A DNA stretch of 64,000 nt. Origin: Candidatus Aenigmatarchaeota archaeon (GTDB lineage: Archaea; Aenigmatarchaeota; Aenigmatarchaeia; JACPZZ01). A model generated the notes under the pieces. It was given only the letters and a program-made list of their open reading frames with translations, did no database searches and was not told the DNA's origin. The stretch spans positions 223,513 to 287,512 of the forward strand of contig JACPAF010000001.1 in NCBI GenBank assembly GCA_016180965.1. The letters run 5' to 3'. The position numbers and the translations under genes are program-made. This document shows, in pieces, positions 10,582 to 63,729 of this stretch (positions are counted from its first letter, which is position 1; every line of letters begins with the position of its first letter).

Positions 10582-10613
10582 GAAGCATACCGTATATTGT
10601 ATCGGTATGCTTC
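10582..10613 (+). repeat. hairpin GAAGCATACCG-tatattgtat-CGGTATGCTTC followed by TAGCTG and a T-rich tract; terminator-like
   Basis: Perfect 11 bp stem 32 nt after the stop of paralog 3. TTTTATTTTTATT follows at 10634-10646. Confidence 0.55.
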
Positions 10614-40071: not shown

Positions 40072-40096
40072 CGGTTAGAATCACATCGAGGAAACT

Positions 40097-40170
40097 GAAA
40101 CATACGCTAGACAGTTAGAAGCATACCGATACAGTATACGGTATGCTTCAGTCTACGATGCGTATGTTTC
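40097..40170 (+). repeat. nested double hairpin: outer GAAACATACGC/GCGTATGTTTC, inner GAAGCATACCG-atacagtata-CGGTATGCTTC; followed by TAGCAACCC
   Basis: Perfect 11 bp inner and outer stems. Lies between convergent genes (Nudix + strand, SIS-like - strand). Confidence 0.55.
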
Positions 40171-40223
40171 TAGCAACCCGTGCTTCAGTTTATGGCGGTA
40201 TGATTCCAGTTGCAATGTCGACC

Positions 40224-40254
40224 GAAGCATATGCATACGAATAGCATATGCTTC
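40224..40254 (+). repeat. hairpin GAAGCATATGC-atacgaata-GCATATGCTTC
   Basis: Perfect 11 bp stem, 54 nt after the nested hairpin. Confidence 0.55.
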
Positions 40255-54459: not shown

Positions 54460-55782
54460 ATGGTTTTGGACAAGCTCGGAGAGTCGTTATCAAACGCCCT
54501 AAGAAAAATAGCGGGCAGGGGTTTTGTAGACAAGGCTGTCGTAGATGAATTTATCCGAGATTTGCAGCGCGCTTTGCTGCAGGCTGACGTGGATGTGAAA
54601 TTGGTATCTACGCTTTCAAATAAAATACGCGACAAAGTTTTGAACGAGAAGCCTGCGTCTGGGATTACGGTTAAAGAGCACATGATAAAAACCGTTTATG
54701 ACGAGCTGGTAATTTTTTTGGGCCGCGAAACCGGGTCTGTGGAGTTAAAAAAACAAAAAATACTTTTAGTAGGATTGTACGGGTCCGGTAAAACGACGAG
54801 TTCTGCGAAGCTTGCTAAATTTTTCGTCCGCAAGGGTTTGAAGCCTGCTTTGGTGGGCTGCGACACGTTCCGGCCTGCGGCACAAGAACAGATAATACAA
54901 CTCGGAAGCCAGATTGGCGTGCCTGTTTATGCGCAAGGCAGCGACCCTTCCAAAACCGCCGAGGAAGCGATAAAAAAATTTCCGGAAAGGGATGTAATAA
55001 TCTTCGATTCCGCTGGTCGCAATGCGTTGGATGTTGAATTGGCCGATGAATTGAAAAGATTAAAAGATTCTGTGAAACCGGATGAAATTTTTTTGGTGAT
55101 ACCGGCCGAAATGGGGCAGGCTGCGGGCAAGCAATCTGAGGAGTTTGCAAAGCTTGTGGGCATAACAGGCGTTATAGTTACGAAAATGGACGGCACTGCC
55201 AAAGGAGGCGCCGCACTCAGCTCCTGTGCGATTGTAAATGCGCCGATAAAATTTATCGGTGTCGGGGAGAAAGTTGACGAGTTCGAAAATTACGACCCGA
55301 AACGTTTTGTTTCGCGTTTGATAGGTTACGGCGATTTGCAAAGCCTCGTGGAAAAGGCGGAGGAAATCAAGTCGCCTGAACTTATGAAATCCGCCGAAAA
55401 TATGATGAGCGGTAAATATTCTTTACAGGATTTTTACGAGCAGATCGAATCAATAAAGAAAATGGGGCCTTTGAAGCAGGTGATGCAGATGATACCTGGG
55501 CTCAAGTTGCCGGATGGCATGTTGGATGTACAGGAAAAGCAGATGGCAAAATGGAAAATTGCGATGGAATCAATGACAAAAAAGGAAAAGTCGGATCCGT
55601 CGATTATCGATAATAGCAGGATAAAAAGAATAGCGTCGGGAAGCGGTTTGAAAGACGACGATGTGAAAGAACTGATAAAACATTATGACCGCACGAAAAA
55701 AATGATGAAGATGATGGGCGGGAAAAATTTGAAGCGCGGGGGCTTTGCCCAATTAGCGAAACAGTTTGGAATGAAGATGTGA
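54460..55782 (+). CDS. srp54: signal recognition particle protein SRP54
   Basis: ILLVGLYGSGKTTSSAKLA, DTFRPAA, DSAGR, TKMDGTAKGG, plus a Met-rich M domain. Confidence 0.95.
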   Translation: MVLDKLGESLSNALRKIAGRGFVDKAVVDEFIRDLQRALLQADVDVKLVSTLSNKIRDKVLNEKPASGITVKEHMIKTVYDELVIFLGRETGSVELKKQKILLVGLYGSGKTTSSAKLAKFFVRKGLKPALVGCDTFRPAAQEQIIQLGSQIGVPVYAQGSDPSKTAEEAIKKFPERDVIIFDSAGRNALDVELADELKRLKDSVKPDEIFLVIPAEMGQAAGKQSEEFAKLVGITGVIVTKMDGTAKGGAALSSCAIVNAPIKFIGVGEKVDEFENYDPKRFVSRLIGYGDLQSLVEKAEEIKSPELMKSAENMMSGKYSLQDFYEQIESIKKMGPLKQVMQMIPGLKLPDGMLDVQEKQMAKWKIAMESMTKKEKSDPSIIDNSRIKRIASGSGLKDDDVKELIKHYDRTKKMMKMMGGKNLKRGGFAQLAKQFGMKM

Positions 55783-58222: not shown

Positions 58223-58678
58223 ATGGCTCAGCCTTTTAACAAAGGAGTTTCACCTCTAGTCGCATCAGTACTTCTCATATCATTTACCATGGCAATAGCT
58301 GCGATATTGGCGACTTGGGCCACACAATACATGACACAACAAACTACTACGCTAACCACGAAAGGCAACGAGGCTAATTGTGTTTATGCCAGGATGAACC
58401 TGGACACGTACAGTTACGATAAAACGGGCAACCAGCTGATAATGATAGTAAATAACGACGGCAGGGTCGGGCTGCAAAATTTCACGCTATTCCTTTACAA
58501 CGGAAGCGGCATAAGCCGTATCTCATTAGAGACGGATACGAGCGTTACGAACAGGCAAAACACAACGCTACCGCCCGGCGAACCAAGATCGTTTATAGTC
58601 AACGGGGTTGCGAACGTAACGAGGTTTAGGGTGGTTTCCAACTGTCCGGAATATTCATTCGTAGATAAAACGGTTTAA
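58223..58678 (+). CDS. archaeal type IV pilin (Pilin_N-type class III signal peptide), paralog 1
   Basis: MAQPFNKGVSPLVASVLLISFTMAIAAILATWATQY. Many N-x-S/T sequons. Confidence 0.7.
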   Translation: MAQPFNKGVSPLVASVLLISFTMAIAAILATWATQYMTQQTTTLTTKGNEANCVYARMNLDTYSYDKTGNQLIMIVNNDGRVGLQNFTLFLYNGSGISRISLETDTSVTNRQNTTLPPGEPRSFIVNGVANVTRFRVVSNCPEYSFVDKTV

Positions 58679-58717
58679 AAATGTTTATAAGTATCTGGCC
58701 GACAATTAATAATTAAG

Positions 58718-59179
58718 TTGAAGGGATTGAATTTGAACAGAAAGGGTTTGTCTCCATTAATAGCGTCCGTACTTCTGGTTGCGTTCACCATGGCAGTCGG
58801 GGCCATCATAATAAACTGGATCACAGGTTTTACACAGCAGCAGACTACGGGTTATTCTGTTCTTACGATTGACAATTCCGAAGTTAATGTTGTGGGCAGT
58901 GTGATTAACGTAACTGTTACGTATGCCGGCGGGACTGAGATATTGAATATTACAGGATTCAGCGTGCGCGATGCGAATGGGGTTACGTATACGAATGCGA
59001 CAATACTGACAAACCTTGCTGCCAATGAAACGAGGAACTGGGCTGTTGGAACTCAGAACAAATTTGTTAATTATATATTGACTGGTACCGTACCTGCAGG
59101 TGTGGCTTGGAGCGAGTTGCGCGTGACAGGATTATGCCAAAGCCAATATGCGGTTACCGGCGTAACGAGACCGTCTTAA
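58718..59179 (+). CDS. archaeal type IV pilin, paralog 2 (TTG start)
   Basis: (M)KGLNLNRKGLSPLIASVLLVAFTMAVGAIIINWITGF. TATA-like TTTATAAG at 58684-58691. Confidence 0.65.
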   Translation: MKGLNLNRKGLSPLIASVLLVAFTMAVGAIIINWITGFTQQQTTGYSVLTIDNSEVNVVGSVINVTVTYAGGTEILNITGFSVRDANGVTYTNATILTNLAANETRNWAVGTQNKFVNYILTGTVPAGVAWSELRVTGLCQSQYAVTGVTRPS

Positions 59180-59188
59180 ACACTAAAA

Positions 59189-59701
59189 ATGATATTTATG
59201 GGCTCAGATTTTAAAGATATTTTGAACAGAAAACAGAAAGGTTTGTCACCTCTGATAGCTTCGGTGCTTCTGATAGGGTTTACAATGGCCGTTGCTGCCA
59301 TATTGGTCGTTTGGATTACAGGCTTCACGCAACAACAAACTACAACAGTAGGGCAACGCGCTGATTTGCAGACTAAATGCAGCTATTCAAGTTTCACGGT
59401 ACCAAGAAATGATGTTGCAGTTGTTGCTAACACATTGAACGTTACTGTGATATACTCAGCCGGTTCGGAAGTGTTGAACATAACTGGGTTTGAAGTGCGC
59501 GATACAAACGGTATATCATACGTGAACATAACTATCGTAAACGGCAGTGCGGTACAAAACCTCGCTGTGGGCTCTGTGACCAAATTTAGTAATTACATAC
59601 TCAGTGGTTCGCTGCCAGGCGGAGTTTCATGGAGCAGGGTCCGCGTTACTGCATTATGCCAGAACCAGTACACGGTTGTCGGCTCAATTTCATCTGCATA
59701 A
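59189..59701 (+). CDS. archaeal type IV pilin, paralog 3
   Basis: MIFMGSDFKDILNRKQKGLSPLIASVLLIGFTMAVAAILVVWITGF. C-terminal SWSRVRVTALCQNQY shared with paralogs 2 and 4. Confidence 0.7.
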   Translation: MIFMGSDFKDILNRKQKGLSPLIASVLLIGFTMAVAAILVVWITGFTQQQTTTVGQRADLQTKCSYSSFTVPRNDVAVVANTLNVTVIYSAGSEVLNITGFEVRDTNGISYVNITIVNGSAVQNLAVGSVTKFSNYILSGSLPGGVSWSRVRVTALCQNQYTVVGSISSA

Positions 59702-59749
59702 ATTTTCCAACCCTATTTATTTAACAGCCGAAGAACAAATTACATTGTT

Positions 59750-60183
59750 ATGAAACATTTGAAAGGCCTTTCTCCATTAATAGCGTCCGTACTTCTGGTT
59801 GCGTTCACCATGGCAGTCGGGGCCATCATAATAAACTGGATCACAGGTTTTACACAGCAGCAGACTACGCGCTTTACGTCTCACGCACAGACGTTTCCGT
59901 AATTGGGAATACGGTTAATCTGACTGTCACATATACCGCGGGCACGGAAATCCTCAATATAACTGGGATAGAAGTGCGTGACGCGAACGGCATTTCCTAT
60001 GTCAACGTCACCATACCAAACACAGATAATGCCACTAGAAATATCGGTTTGGGATCGGTGAATAAATTAACGAATTACATACTCAGCGGTACGTTGCCGG
60101 GTGGAGTTTCATGGAACCGCGTTCGTGTGACTGCGTTGTGCCAGAACCAAGTGGCGATTTTGGGCCTTACGCAGCCGTCTTAA
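59750..60183 (+). pseudogene. disrupted type IV pilin paralog 4: N-terminus (50 codons) and C-terminal part lie in different frames, with the shift at the end of a 99 nt perfect repeat
   Basis: 59771-59869 is identical to 58751-58849 of paralog 2. Frame A ends TTRFTSHAQTFP* at 59902. Frame A+2 continues ALYVSRTDVSVIGNTVNLTVTYTAGTEILNITGIEVRDANG...VTALCQNQ to 60183. Confidence 0.6.
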
Positions 60184-60230
60184 ACAAATTTATTGCCAAT
60201 CGGATAAAATAATTGATAAGGAATGATAAA

Positions 60231-60695
60231 ATGGAAAGAAAAGGTGTGTCTCCGCTCATTGCAACAGTCCTTTTGATCGCGTTTACAATGGCAGTCGCAA
60301 TAATATTGAGCAACTGGGTTTTGGATTATTCGCGCACACAGACGCAAATACTCAACGAAAAGGGTTCCAAACAAGTTGGATGCTCATCGGCGTGGCTGGC
60401 GTTCCAGGGCCCGGTTTACAATTCGACGCAAAAAAGATTTTCAGTTGAAATAATCAACCAAGGAAATGTCCCGCTCGGAGATTTCAAGATGATAGTCATT
60501 TATAACAACGGCACAAGTTCGGAATACCAGATAGCGCCGGTCAATCTCAGTTTATCACCGGGCACGCCCGCAGCTATCAGCAACACAAGCGTTGACAGCG
60601 TGGCGATAACGAGGGTTAGGATACCTCACAACTGCAGCGGCTCCAACTCCGCCTCGACTGCGACTATGGAGTCCGCGGACATAAAAGTTGCGTGA
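60231..60695 (+). CDS. archaeal type IV pilin, paralog 5
   Basis: MERKGVSPLIATVLLIAFTMAVAIILSNWVLDY. Confidence 0.7.
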   Translation: MERKGVSPLIATVLLIAFTMAVAIILSNWVLDYSRTQTQILNEKGSKQVGCSSAWLAFQGPVYNSTQKRFSVEIINQGNVPLGDFKMIVIYNNGTSSEYQIAPVNLSLSPGTPAAISNTSVDSVAITRVRIPHNCSGSNSASTATMESADIKVA

Positions 60696-60743
60696 TCCGG
60701 TGTAATTTTTAAATTGCTGCGATGTTATTTTTTAGCTGGTTAT

Positions 60744-62021
60744 ATGGAAACTGAATACGATGTTATAGTCGTCGGCGGCGGGCCTGCCGGCTCTTCTTGT
60801 GCGGCGCTTCTTGGGCGCGACGGCATAAAAACTTTGCTAGTCGACAAAGCTTCATTCCCGCGCGACAAGACATGCGGTGACGAAATAAGCGATAAATGCG
60901 CCGATATACTAAGGGACATCGGGGTGGAGGAAGAAGTAAAAAAATTGCAGCATTCCATGATTTACGGCCTAGTTTCGTCTTCGCCGTCGGGCATACAAAT
61001 TGAAACTTCCGAAAGTTCGGGGTTCCACCAGTATGTTTGCAAGCGGGAGATATTTGATAATGTAATTTTTGAACAGGCGAAAAAAAAATCCGAGGCCATG
61101 GAGAATTTCACAGTCACGGATTTGATCATGGACGGTTTTAAAGTTGCGGGCGTCAAAGGCGTAAAAAAGAACGGAAATGAAATCGAGTTGCGCGCAAAAA
61201 TCGTGGTCGGAGCAGACGGCGCGACTTCAATTGTTGCGCGCAAGCTTGGGCTGAACAATTTTGATACTAAAAAATCACATGTTGCAATACGCGCATATTA
61301 TGAAAATGTCGACATGAACCCAGGGCGTATGGAGATACATTTTCTTGACGAATGCATGCCGGGATATTTCTGGATATTTCCTGTGGGGAATAACATGTGC
61401 AATGTCGGATTGGGTATGTTGGCGTCGGAGATACAGGAACGGAGATTAAACCTTAAAATACTCCTTGACTTGGCAATAAAAAATTCCAGGATTTCCTACA
61501 AATTCAAAAACGCAAAACAAATTTCGGAAATAAAAGGCTGGAACCTGCCGACGGGCGCACAAAAAAGGAAACGCGCAGGCGACGGATTTATTTTAATCGG
61601 GGATGCAGCTTCTTTGATAGACCCGCTTACAGGCGGAGGAGTCGGCAACGGAGTAGTTAGCGCGAAAATCGCCGCAGACACAATAAAAAAATCATTGGCA
61701 TCAAATGATTTTTCTTACAATATTCTTTCGGAGTATGAAAAAAATTTAGATAAAAAAATGGAGGGAGAGTTCAAGGAACGGTACAGGATAATGAAACTGA
61801 TGAGCGACATAAATGTTGTGAATTCCGTTTTCGAGGCGTTTGACGGGAAAAATTACCTGGTGGAACAGGTGTTTAAAAATTTTGTGCATACGGGAGGAAC
61901 GAAAAAGCCGGGCATACCGCTGAAGTTTTATTTTGCCGTCCTTCTTAAGCTTGTTTCCAAATTTTTGGGACTAAATAAAAATCACACGACAATTGCGCCG
62001 GCTGCCACCCAAGCCCCGTAG
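60744..62021 (+). CDS. geranylgeranyl reductase (FAD-dependent digeranylgeranylglycerophospholipid reductase family)
   Basis: METEYDVIVVGGGPAGSSCAALLGRDGIKTLLVDKASFPRDKTCGDEIS, VVGADGATSIVAR, GDAASLIDPLTGGG. Confidence 0.8.
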   Translation: METEYDVIVVGGGPAGSSCAALLGRDGIKTLLVDKASFPRDKTCGDEISDKCADILRDIGVEEEVKKLQHSMIYGLVSSSPSGIQIETSESSGFHQYVCKREIFDNVIFEQAKKKSEAMENFTVTDLIMDGFKVAGVKGVKKNGNEIELRAKIVVGADGATSIVARKLGLNNFDTKKSHVAIRAYYENVDMNPGRMEIHFLDECMPGYFWIFPVGNNMCNVGLGMLASEIQERRLNLKILLDLAIKNSRISYKFKNAKQISEIKGWNLPTGAQKRKRAGDGFILIGDAASLIDPLTGGGVGNGVVSAKIAADTIKKSLASNDFSYNILSEYEKNLDKKMEGEFKERYRIMKLMSDINVVNSVFEAFDGKNYLVEQVFKNFVHTGGTKKPGIPLKFYFAVLLKLVSKFLGLNKNHTTIAPAATQAP

Positions 62022-62851
62022 CCTATTGAAACTAGAGCGACTGAGTGTTTGAACCCGCCGAAGAATGAGCCTTCCGCCATTTTACCTATTGCCAGACCTG
62101 AGAACCCGCCCTGGATAATTATCATTGCGGTGAACATCAGATCGTAAAGGTTTTTGTTCACGTCGCCCGATAATCCTCCCTCGAGCCCGCCACCTAAACC
62201 CGAAAGGGACGGTAACAAAAATTTCTGCAGTCCGATTAGTACGGCAAGAAAAACGAAAAATATAGTGTAACCTGTTATCATCTGTCCGTAAATATGCGAG
62301 GCGCGTTCGGATTTTATCCTGTTGACTTCGAGTATTGCGCCTGAAATGGCCTGCAGGACTTCTACAATATTGCCGCCGGAACGGTGGGTTTCTATAATTG
62401 TCGCGACAGTTCGCTTTATTAGAGGGGTTCCGACAGATTCCGAGAATGAGCGCAACACGTCGTCGAAAGGCACGCCCCAGTCCATTTGGGCAGACATTTG
62501 CCTCACATAGGAGTTTAGCTTATCATAATCGTGTTTTGATGCGGCTTTCATCGCTATGGGCAGTGTCATGCCTGCGCGCACTCCGTCCACGACATCGGTG
62601 ATGTAAAGCGGAAATTCGGTTTCTATAGCGCGCGCCCTGGAGTATTCCGAATAACTTATAGCCAGGGACGGGCCCAATGCGAGTAAAACAGCCAGGGATC
62701 CAAGCAGCTGGAAAATCACAGCGTCTTTTGCGAAATAAATCAGGTTTATCGCTGTGACTATCGTGGCGACTACCAGGGAACCTCCGATTATTGCCGTTTT
62801 CTTTTTGTTCCTTAATATCCAGTTTACAATGCCTTTTTTCTTCAATGCCAT
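61982..62851 (-). CDS. pilus/archaellum platform protein, second T2SS-F domain (TadC-like half)
   Basis: 289 aa polytopic protein. ATG is preceded by GGAGGTG and lies 2 nt after the upstream gene's TAA. Confidence 0.6.
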   Translation of the reverse strand: MALKKKGIVNWILRNKKKTAIIGGSLVVATIVTAINLIYFAKDAVIFQLLGSLAVLLALGPSLAISYSEYSRARAIETEFPLYITDVVDGVRAGMTLPIAMKAASKHDYDKLNSYVRQMSAQMDWGVPFDDVLRSFSESVGTPLIKRTVATIIETHRSGGNIVEVLQAISGAILEVNRIKSERASHIYGQMITGYTIFFVFLAVLIGLQKFLLPSLSGLGGGLEGGLSGDVNKNLYDLMFTAMIIIQGGFSGLAIGKMAEGSFFGGFKHSVALVSIGYGAWVAAGAIVV

Positions 62852-62853
62852 TT

Positions 62854-63729
62854 TTACACCTCCGGCTGGGTCATGTGGACGAATGCCAGGAACGCTATGT
62901 TTACCAGCGGAAGGGCCACGAAAATTCCCAGAACCATTATGCTTTCTATTGACGTGCCGCCCAATGCACCGCCTATCATGTTCATTACTGTCAATATCGA
63001 AACCAGGAATAACGGGGCTGCGATTAAAAGGGCGGTATAGAAGTCTGCGTAAGTAGCTAGAAGTTCCATGTATTTTTCCCTTCTTATGCGATAATCGAAT
63101 AAGGAGTCTTTCGCCTGGTCATTCAGGAATTTTTTCAAATCCCCTCCGGTTTCTATACCGGATCTTATGCCTTCCAAAAGCTGTTTGAAATTTTTTGAAG
63201 GAGTCCTTTCGGAAACTTGCTGCATTGAACTGGTTATGCTTAGGCCGAATGTGTCAACATTCCGGACAATTTTTTTTGCCTCGGTTGAAATTTCACCGTA
63301 CTCCTTGAATGTTGCCAGTAAGTTGAACATTACGTAAGTCGGCACGCCGGATGCGGCTATGGCGGCCATGTGGTTTAATGCGAAGGGAAGGTTTGCGTCT
63401 ATCGACCGTTTCCTTGATACCGATTTTTGGTACGGATAAAAAACCATGGCGAGGAAAGTCGACATTGTGAACAATGGGGGCAAGAGAACCGCGAACATTA
63501 CGACGTTTGAAATTTCCATTTTCAGTTCAATTGTCAAAATCCACAGAAGGACCAGTGAAAACAAACCCGCGCCCACGCCGACGGCCGCGGATATCGAGAC
63601 CCATGTTTTCAGCAGATAACGCATTCCCGACCGCTCCAGCCCGACTTTTACGGGCTGCAGTTCTTTTTCATATTTTTCAGGTATCCAGCCGAAAATTGAA
63701 GTGGCCAATGAAACCATGTTGCGAGCCAT
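62854..63729 (-). CDS. pilus/archaellum platform protein, first T2SS-F domain (TadB-like half)
   Basis: 291 aa polytopic protein with a cytoplasmic helical domain between TM segments. Confidence 0.6.
   Translation of the reverse strand: MARNMVSLATSIFGWIPEKYEKELQPVKVGLERSGMRYLLKTWVSISAAVGVGAGLFSLVLLWILTIELKMEISNVVMFAVLLPPLFTMSTFLAMVFYPYQKSVSRKRSIDANLPFALNHMAAIAASGVPTYVMFNLLATFKEYGEISTEAKKIVRNVDTFGLSITSSMQQVSERTPSKNFKQLLEGIRSGIETGGDLKKFLNDQAKDSLFDYRIRREKYMELLATYADFYTALLIAAPLFLVSILTVMNMIGGALGGTSIESIMVLGIFVALPLVNIAFLAFVHMTQPEV

Follow-up and report, generated by a model that had tools for sequence, protein, structure and literature searches.

The locus studied here raises the question whether the fourth gene of a tandem pilin cluster in an archaeal genome is really broken, or whether its interruption arose during assembly. 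The reading frame of this gene is lost exactly at the end of a perfect repeat that it has in common with the second gene of the cluster. This coincidence had been attributed either to recombination between the pilin paralogues, in the manner of antigenic or phase variation, or to a chimeric mis-assembly of tandem near-repeats.

The deposited locus

In the window, i.e. the whole 64-kb stretch of DNA that was analysed, positions 59771-59869 are identical to positions 58751-58849 over exactly 99 nt, and not one further base matches on either side. With a repeat finder, the block was called with a length of 108 nt and 96% identity, the 9 nt to its left being partly similar. The block is the sole long exact repeat within the window, and an exact repeat of 99 nt in 64 kb is no product of chance. 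Both the identity and the change of frame directly behind it had been described in the initial annotation, and both were confirmed by the comparison of the window with itself: the reading frame opened by the ATG of pilin 4 ends at 59902, while the pilin body continues in another frame to 60183.

The window is a faithful copy of the deposited metagenome-assembled genome (MAG) of a Candidatus Aenigmarchaeota archaeon (locus tags HYT71_016xx), as determined by exact protein look-ups. The GenBank record of the MAG includes the proteins MBI2085190-MBI2085194. Of the pilin 4 body, a beta-rich domain with a C-terminal Cys, the NCBI annotation comprises the last 69 aa only (HYT71_01630, 59974-60183). 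This fragment and the preceding HYT71_01625 are both annotated as 'hypothetical proteins'.

The two fragments lie within a cluster of five tandem genes on the plus strand (58223-60695), each of which starts with a class III signal peptide motif of the form K/R-G-L/V-S-P-L-I/V-A (Table 1). Since genes for SRP54, Pus10, ribosomal protein L21e and Rpb4 are located upstream, the host is an archaeon. Downstream of the pilins, a geranylgeranyl reductase gene is followed by two convergent T2SSF genes. For comparison, two relatives with a syntenic locus and 77-87% DNA identity were used (L005, GCA_964476825.1; L006, GCA_053529755.1). In both of them the T2SSF genes are followed by genes for a PF06745 (KaiC-like) and a PF00437 (T2SSE) ATPase; the window ends before the corresponding positions.

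Two minor observations were made for the neighbouring genes. The geranylgeranyl reductase gene (plus strand) and the first T2SSF gene (minus strand) overlap at their 3' ends by 40 nt (61982-62021), and this overlap is also called in L005 and L006. SRP54 is encoded in the window as a plain 440-aa protein (54460-55782); in L006 (15484-16873) it contains an intein (PF14890 Intein_splicing, PF14528 LAGLIDADG), with a product of at least 1048 aa.

Table 1. Coordinates of the pilin genes, the repeat copies, the putative contig joints and the adjoining platform genes in the window
Feature	Position	Strand	Remarks
Pilin paralogue 1	58223..58678	+	151 aa, intact; 151-aa orthologues in L005 and L006
Pilin paralogue 2 as deposited	58727..59179	+	HYT71_01615, 150 aa, without 36 nt between 58849 and 58850
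Copy 1 of the 99-nt repeat	58751..58849	+	pilin 2 N-terminus, SPLIAS...QQQTT
Putative contig joint 1	58849..58850	+	36 nt absent from deposit
Pilin paralogue 3	59189..59701	+	170 aa ORF, NCBI 167 aa, intact; family and structure-model reference
Pilin paralogue 4 as deposited	59750..59902	+	ATG ORF, 50 aa, MKHLKGLSPLIASVLLVAFTMAVGAIIINWITGFTQQQTTRFTSHAQTFP followed by stop, HYT71_01625; stop at 59902 probably false
Pilin paralogue 4, N-terminal part	59750..59869	+	carries the start codon, the class III signal peptide and the hydrophobic helix
Copy 2 of the 99-nt repeat	59771..59869	+	conversion tract, pilin 2 to pilin 4
Putative contig joint 2	59869..59870	+	46 nt absent, GTAGTTGCGCAACGAGGGGACCAGCAGACAAAATGCGCGTATTCCA
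Pilin paralogue 4, body	59870..60183	+	frame with codons starting at 59869; ALYVSRTDVSVIGNTVNLTV...LTQPS followed by stop
Pilin paralogue 5	60231..60695	+	154 aa, intact
T2SSF-family PilC/TadC-like platform protein	61982..62851	-	PF00482, E = 3.8e-16
Second T2SSF-family platform protein	62854..63729	-	PF00482, E = 8e-15

The missing bases and the restored pilin locus

The locus was compared with contigs from Logan, where each SRA run is assembled separately at k=31. The contig L001 originates from SRR12113384, L002 and L003 from SRR12113431, and L004 from SRR12113433, which represents a strain 98.7% identical to the window. At the junction within pilin 2, L001 showed a 100% match to the window from 58850 to 59869 (1020 nt) and L002 from 58850 to 59800. 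Upstream of 58850 both contigs read ...CAGCAGACTACG GTAATTGGCCAGCGCGGAGAGAACCAGATAAAATGC GGTTATTCT..., i.e. they contain 36 extra nt. The same 36 nt are present in L004, which spans paralogue 1 and the entire repeat and extends into paralogue 2. At the junction within pilin 4, L003 matched the window at 100% from 59870 to 60881 (1012 nt), while its upstream part reads ...ACTACG GTAGTTGCGCAACGAGGGGACCAGCAGACAAAATGCGCGTATTCCA CGCTTTACG... and thereby comprises 46 extra nt. In the deposit, CAGACTACG is joined directly to CGCTTTACG in pilin 4 and directly to GGTTATTCT in pilin 2.

The independent contigs also define the length of the repeat. The end of L001 within pilin 4 reads ...ACTACGGTA and not ...ACTACGCGC, and in L001, L003 and L004 the repeat is extended by GTA from 99 to 102 nt. 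L001 and L003 begin with one and the same 30-mer, which ends in GTA and matches the terminal 30 nt of the 102-nt block; L002 breaks off after exactly 30 nt of the block. Based on these break points of L001, L002 and L003 at k=31, the 102-nt block is therefore common to both genes.

In pilin 4, the 46 nt missing at 59869/59870 are the sole cause of the frame shift (+1). With these bases restored, the gene comprises one open frame of 159 aa (...QQQTTVVAQRGDQQTKCAYSTLYVSRTDV...). The 36-nt segment missing from pilin 2, GTAATTGGCCAGCGCGGAGAGAACCAGATAAAATGC, codes for VIGQRGENQIKC and includes a conserved Cys. Its restoration is in frame and results in 160 aa, and the true pilin 2 is, as far as can be read from the restored gene, a protein of this length starting from a TTG at 58733. 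Since the 36-nt loss is in frame and the gene still reads through, this second gap had been overlooked in the initial annotation.

The look-ups of gene products gave a corresponding picture. The exact product of the 170-aa pilin 3 ORF was found on L001 and L002, that of pilin 1 on L004, and that of pilin 5 in NCBI and on L003. The shortened products, i.e. pilin 2 with 150 aa and the pilin 4 fragments with 50 and 69 aa, were found on the contig of the MAG and on no other. Since gene products cut by a contig edge are not indexed in Logan, the lack of deletion-type products there is weak evidence. An exact 45-nt pattern from the pilin 4 body gave no match in the genome contigs and metagenome contigs searched, in which this strain is not represented.

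Both syntenic relatives contain five intact pilins each, with lengths of 151, 160, 161, 159 and 154 aa. The lengths of the restored pilin 2 (160 aa) and the restored pilin 4 (159 aa) are identical to those of their orthologues. Paralogue 2 in L005 and L006 contains VVGQRGENQ(I/L)KC, and paralogue 4 contains VVAQRGDQQTKCAYSTLYVSRTDV. Compared to pilin 4 of L005, the restored 46-nt segment showed three differences, all of which are synonymous as read from the alignment. On the protein level, the restored pilin 4 is 92% and 89% identical to the homologues P0012 and P0013, both of which comprise 159 aa. Used as a query, it retrieved 39 homologues of 129-167 aa, and the named ones among them are proteins of Aenigmarchaeota MAGs. 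In the alignment of these 39 members R57, Q61, C64 and C157 are conserved to at least 90%. The 12-residue segment xVGxRGxxQxxC is missing in one of the 39 only, namely P0039, which is the deposited pilin 2 (HYT71_01615) itself.

The assignment to the type IV pilins was examined with N-terminal family models and a structure model. For TIGR02537 (cutoff 20 bits), pilin 1 (26.4 bits), the restored pilin 2 (24.7), pilin 3 (27.0) and pilin 5 (27.9) lie above the cutoff, and the restored pilin 4 (19.7) lies slightly under it. For PF07790 (Pilin_N, cutoff 25.2 bits), pilin 1 is the only one passing with 25.4 bits, the other pilins reaching 17-23 bits. An AlphaFold2 model of pilin 3, calculated with the 39 homologues, showed a pLDDT of 78.3 and comprises a helix of residues 21-65 followed by eight strands that form a beta sandwich. 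Since the model helix extends over residues 21-65, the missing segment corresponds to the C-terminal end of the pilin helix and includes the first cysteine of the conserved pair. Cys64 and Cys157 may form a disulfide. A Foldseek search of the pilin 3 model against the PDB returned no significant match, only generic beta sandwiches with E of at least 0.02. The family profile weakly matches the PDB chain 8rey_M, a 'flagellin-like protein' (E = 5e-6), and also several archaellins.

Altogether, the N-terminal family models, the predicted helix and beta domain and the adjoining pilus genes agree with archaeal type IV pilins. The restored locus is, by its predicted products, an ordinary type IV pilus locus of a DPANN archaeon with pilins of 151, 160, about 167-170, 159 and 154 aa. 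Each restored pilin comprises a KG/LSPLIA... signal peptide, a long hydrophobic helix, a beta-sandwich domain and a Cys both at the helix end and near the C-terminus. Compared to archaeal type IV pilins of the UpsA/Aap type from Sulfolobales, the class III signal peptide (KG/LSP) and the predicted sequence of helix and beta sandwich are alike, as is the tandem arrangement beside PilC/TadC-like genes, with ATPase genes in the syntenic relatives. Several N-x-S/T sequons are present in the window pilins, as in archaeal type IV pilins. In contrast to those, the homologues (39) came only from Aenigmarchaeota MAGs, and the family contains a conserved Cys pair. It also reaches only about 17-31 bits against UpsA, the equivalog cutoff of which is 130.

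Origin of the identical block and of the breaks

Within the block, pilin 4 of the window is 100% identical to pilin 2 of the window, 88% identical to pilin 2 of L005 and 78% identical to pilin 4 of L005. Downstream of the block, it shows 84% identity to pilin 4 of L005 and about 60% to pilin 2. Paralogues are thus closer than orthologues inside the tract, and the flanks follow orthology, as is characteristic of gene conversion. On the basis of this pattern, the N-terminal identity is genuine: in this lineage, pilin 4 recently received the sequence from pilin 2 by non-reciprocal transfer. Of the recombination proposed earlier, the gene conversion holds for the identity block, both by the independent assemblies and by the ortholog identities, while its interpretation as phase or antigenic variation does not. 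Since the tract covers the conserved region of signal peptide and helix, the conversion alters few residues. The locus resembles the concerted evolution of tandem paralogues at pilin and flagellin N-termini, where a tract is identical within a genome and the flanks stay on the orthologue tree. For the pilin N-termini, the identities point to recurrent concerted evolution of an ordinary kind.

Homogenised tracts of smaller extent were also seen in the relatives at this place. Paralogues 2 and 3 of L005 (L005 6354-7343) have about 38 identical nt in common, and paralogues 2 and 4 of L006 (L006 10853-12473) are 88% identical in the block.

The positions of the gaps relative to the repeat differ on their two sides. 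Allowing for microhomology at the junctions, which amounts to 3 nt (ACG) at pilin 4 and 1 nt (G) at pilin 2, the left end of the gap can be placed 99-100 nt into the repeat for pilin 2 and, for pilin 4, at 96-99 nt. The single value common to both copies is 99, the true repeat comprising 102 nt as read from the sequence. No homology exists between the right ends: in pilin 2 the missing stretch extends up to and including the Cys codon, in pilin 4 it extends 10 nt further.

With a probability of about 0.88, the frame disruption of pilin 4 is an artefact of the assembly and scaffolding of the deposited MAG and not a property of the organism. The real genome would contain pilins 2 and 4 with a 102-nt identical N-terminal block from genuine conversion. 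A short-read de Bruijn assembler would be unable to resolve this repeat and would yield two contigs that both end on its first 99 nt. During the joining of contigs, too much would be removed from the start of the next contig, namely 36 nt in pilin 2, where the frame is kept, and 46 nt in pilin 4. If the overlap was overestimated by these amounts, exactly the observed losses would result.

If a repeat is left unresolved in a de Bruijn graph with a k of 99 or 100, contigs ending on the same 99-mer are to be expected. The default k list of MEGAHIT includes 99, and the default maximum k of IDBA-UD is 100. For contigs with a negative distance, as estimated from insert sizes, the IDBA scaffolder leaves out the corresponding number of bases of the following contig when joining them. 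The exact mechanism in the assembler was presumably of this kind, and the two deposited junctions would be spanned by no reads. We take the HYT71 MAG to originate from the study of He et al. 2021 (BioProject PRJNA640378). The pipeline described in PMC7906910 consists of MEGAHIT 1.2.9 with default settings followed by the scaffolding function of IDBA-UD, and the tables of that paper contain candidate Aenigmarchaeota MAGs of 44% GC at about 10-80x coverage. The runs SRR12113384, SRR12113431 and SRR12113433 were not found in its supplement.

The deposited junctions are absent from the independent assemblies, the break lies at a repeat of about k length, and both copies are affected. In this respect the locus is like other mis-joins of short-read assemblies at repeats, where the break occurs at a repeat of about k bases, both copies are hit and tens of bases are lost. 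It is unlike the usual chimera or collapsed repeat, since the gene order is correct, no N gap is present and the loss of 36 and 46 nt is silent. The earlier suggestion of a chimeric mis-assembly is accordingly retained as far as a mis-assembly accounts for the frame break; instead of a chimera, sequence was lost at a joint bounded by the repeat.

As an alternative to the artefact, the population from which the MAG was obtained could truly carry both deletions as alleles, with pilin 4 as a recent pseudogene and pilin 2 carrying an in-frame deletion of 12 aa. They might then be by-products of the recombination that homogenises the N-termini, e.g. of tracts resolved by microhomology, which would be in line with the 3-nt ACG and the 1-nt G at the junctions and with the clear recombination of the paralogues. 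The source sample of the MAG may, moreover, differ from the three SRA runs and could contain a variant population. However, a single natural event is impossible for both gaps, because their right ends are non-homologous and the donor of a conversion stays unaltered. Two independent deletions would therefore be needed, with right ends that differ by 10 nt in the alignment, both of which nevertheless start at the same base of the repeat copies, 3 nt before the identity truly ends. The 99 nt after which they start are also a k value of an assembler, assemblies in which the genes are intact match the flanks at 100%, and a Cys conserved in at least 90% of the family lies in the deleted segment. Real alleles are accordingly considered unlikely. 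It is very unlikely that the short forms are real minority or sample-specific alleles that arise because recombination of the block repeatedly deletes at the edge of the homology tract, turning pilin 4 off and remodelling pilin 2. If true, an archaeon, and a DPANN episymbiont at that, would vary its pili in a crude way by recombination.

Tandem near-repeats are prone to chimeric mis-assembly, and the orthologues of pilin 4 in L005 and L006 differ in their N-terminal DNA, being 78% identical. The 99-nt identity could on these grounds be artefactual itself, with the N-terminus of pilin 2 pasted onto pilin 4 and a different true N-terminus of pilin 4. This is, however, extremely improbable in view of the k=31 Logan assemblies, which join the unique sequence upstream of pilin 4 to the block, with L001 traversing the whole of it. 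The stop of L002 at 30 nt into the block is expected at a true merge point, L003 connects the end of the 102-nt block (its last 30 nt) with the body of pilin 4, and a sequence of 78% identity would offer no common 30-mer for a jump. Since the k=31 assemblies support a shared block of 102 nt at both loci, a chimeric origin of the identity was rejected. In bacteria, pilins are a classic case of phase and antigenic variation, and the body frame of pilin 4 is open from 59752 through 60183, as would suit an expression by programmed ribosomal frameshifting, a phase-variable on/off switch or an antigenic variation like that of pilE/pilS. Against these possibilities, which are close to negligible in probability, the junction ACTACGCGCTTTACG (CAGCAGACTACG joined to CGCTTTACGTCT) contains no slippery heptamer, homopolymer or short tandem repeat, the shifted product would lack 15 conserved residues with the Cys among them, and L003 and the relatives contain a plain in-frame gene. 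The silent pilin cassettes that the initial annotation had proposed to look for did not turn up: no promoterless or N-terminally truncated pilin cassette was found in the 64 kb, where the class III signal peptide motif is present five times only, in each case in a full-length gene of the tandem cluster. Compared to pilE/pilS of Neisseria, the locus is alike only in the non-reciprocal exchange of sequence between pilin genes; it has no single expression locus with silent truncated cassettes, and what is exchanged is the conserved N-terminus, not a variable surface region. No support for phase or antigenic variation was obtained, and programmed frameshifting, slipped-strand phase variation and silent-cassette antigenic variation were rejected, because the required features are absent and an intact in-frame gene exists.

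Consequences for the deposit and other repeats in the window

Read as an assembly artefact, the locus has a small biological weight, since it would comprise an ordinary cluster of five pilin genes with a normal concerted evolution of the N-termini. For the deposited MAG, it would mean two silent losses at contig joints that are bounded by a repeat and not marked by an N gap. HYT71_01625 and HYT71_01630 would represent a false pseudogene, and HYT71_01615 a false deletion of 12 residues that removes a conserved cysteine. Such joints could mislead pseudogene counts, pilin repertoires and claims of 'phase variation' that are derived from scaffolded short-read MAGs. An exact repeat with the length of an assembler k followed by a frame break may serve as a cheap warning sign of a contig joint.

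Besides the 99-nt block, palindromes and diverged repeats were observed in the window. Intergenic palindromes with a perfect stem, GAAGCATA...TATGCTTC, are located at 10582-10613, 40118-40149 and 40224-40254, i.e. in three copies, where chance would give none. A second palindrome, GAAACATACGC...GCGTATGTTTC (40096-40171), encloses the copy at 40.1 kb. The intergenic palindromes gave no Rfam match at the gathering score and could be terminators or a small repeat element. Two pairs of diverged tandem direct repeats, 35625-35908/35932-36215 and 18357-18529/18945-19117, with identities of 76% and 80%, are probably tandem paralogous genes.
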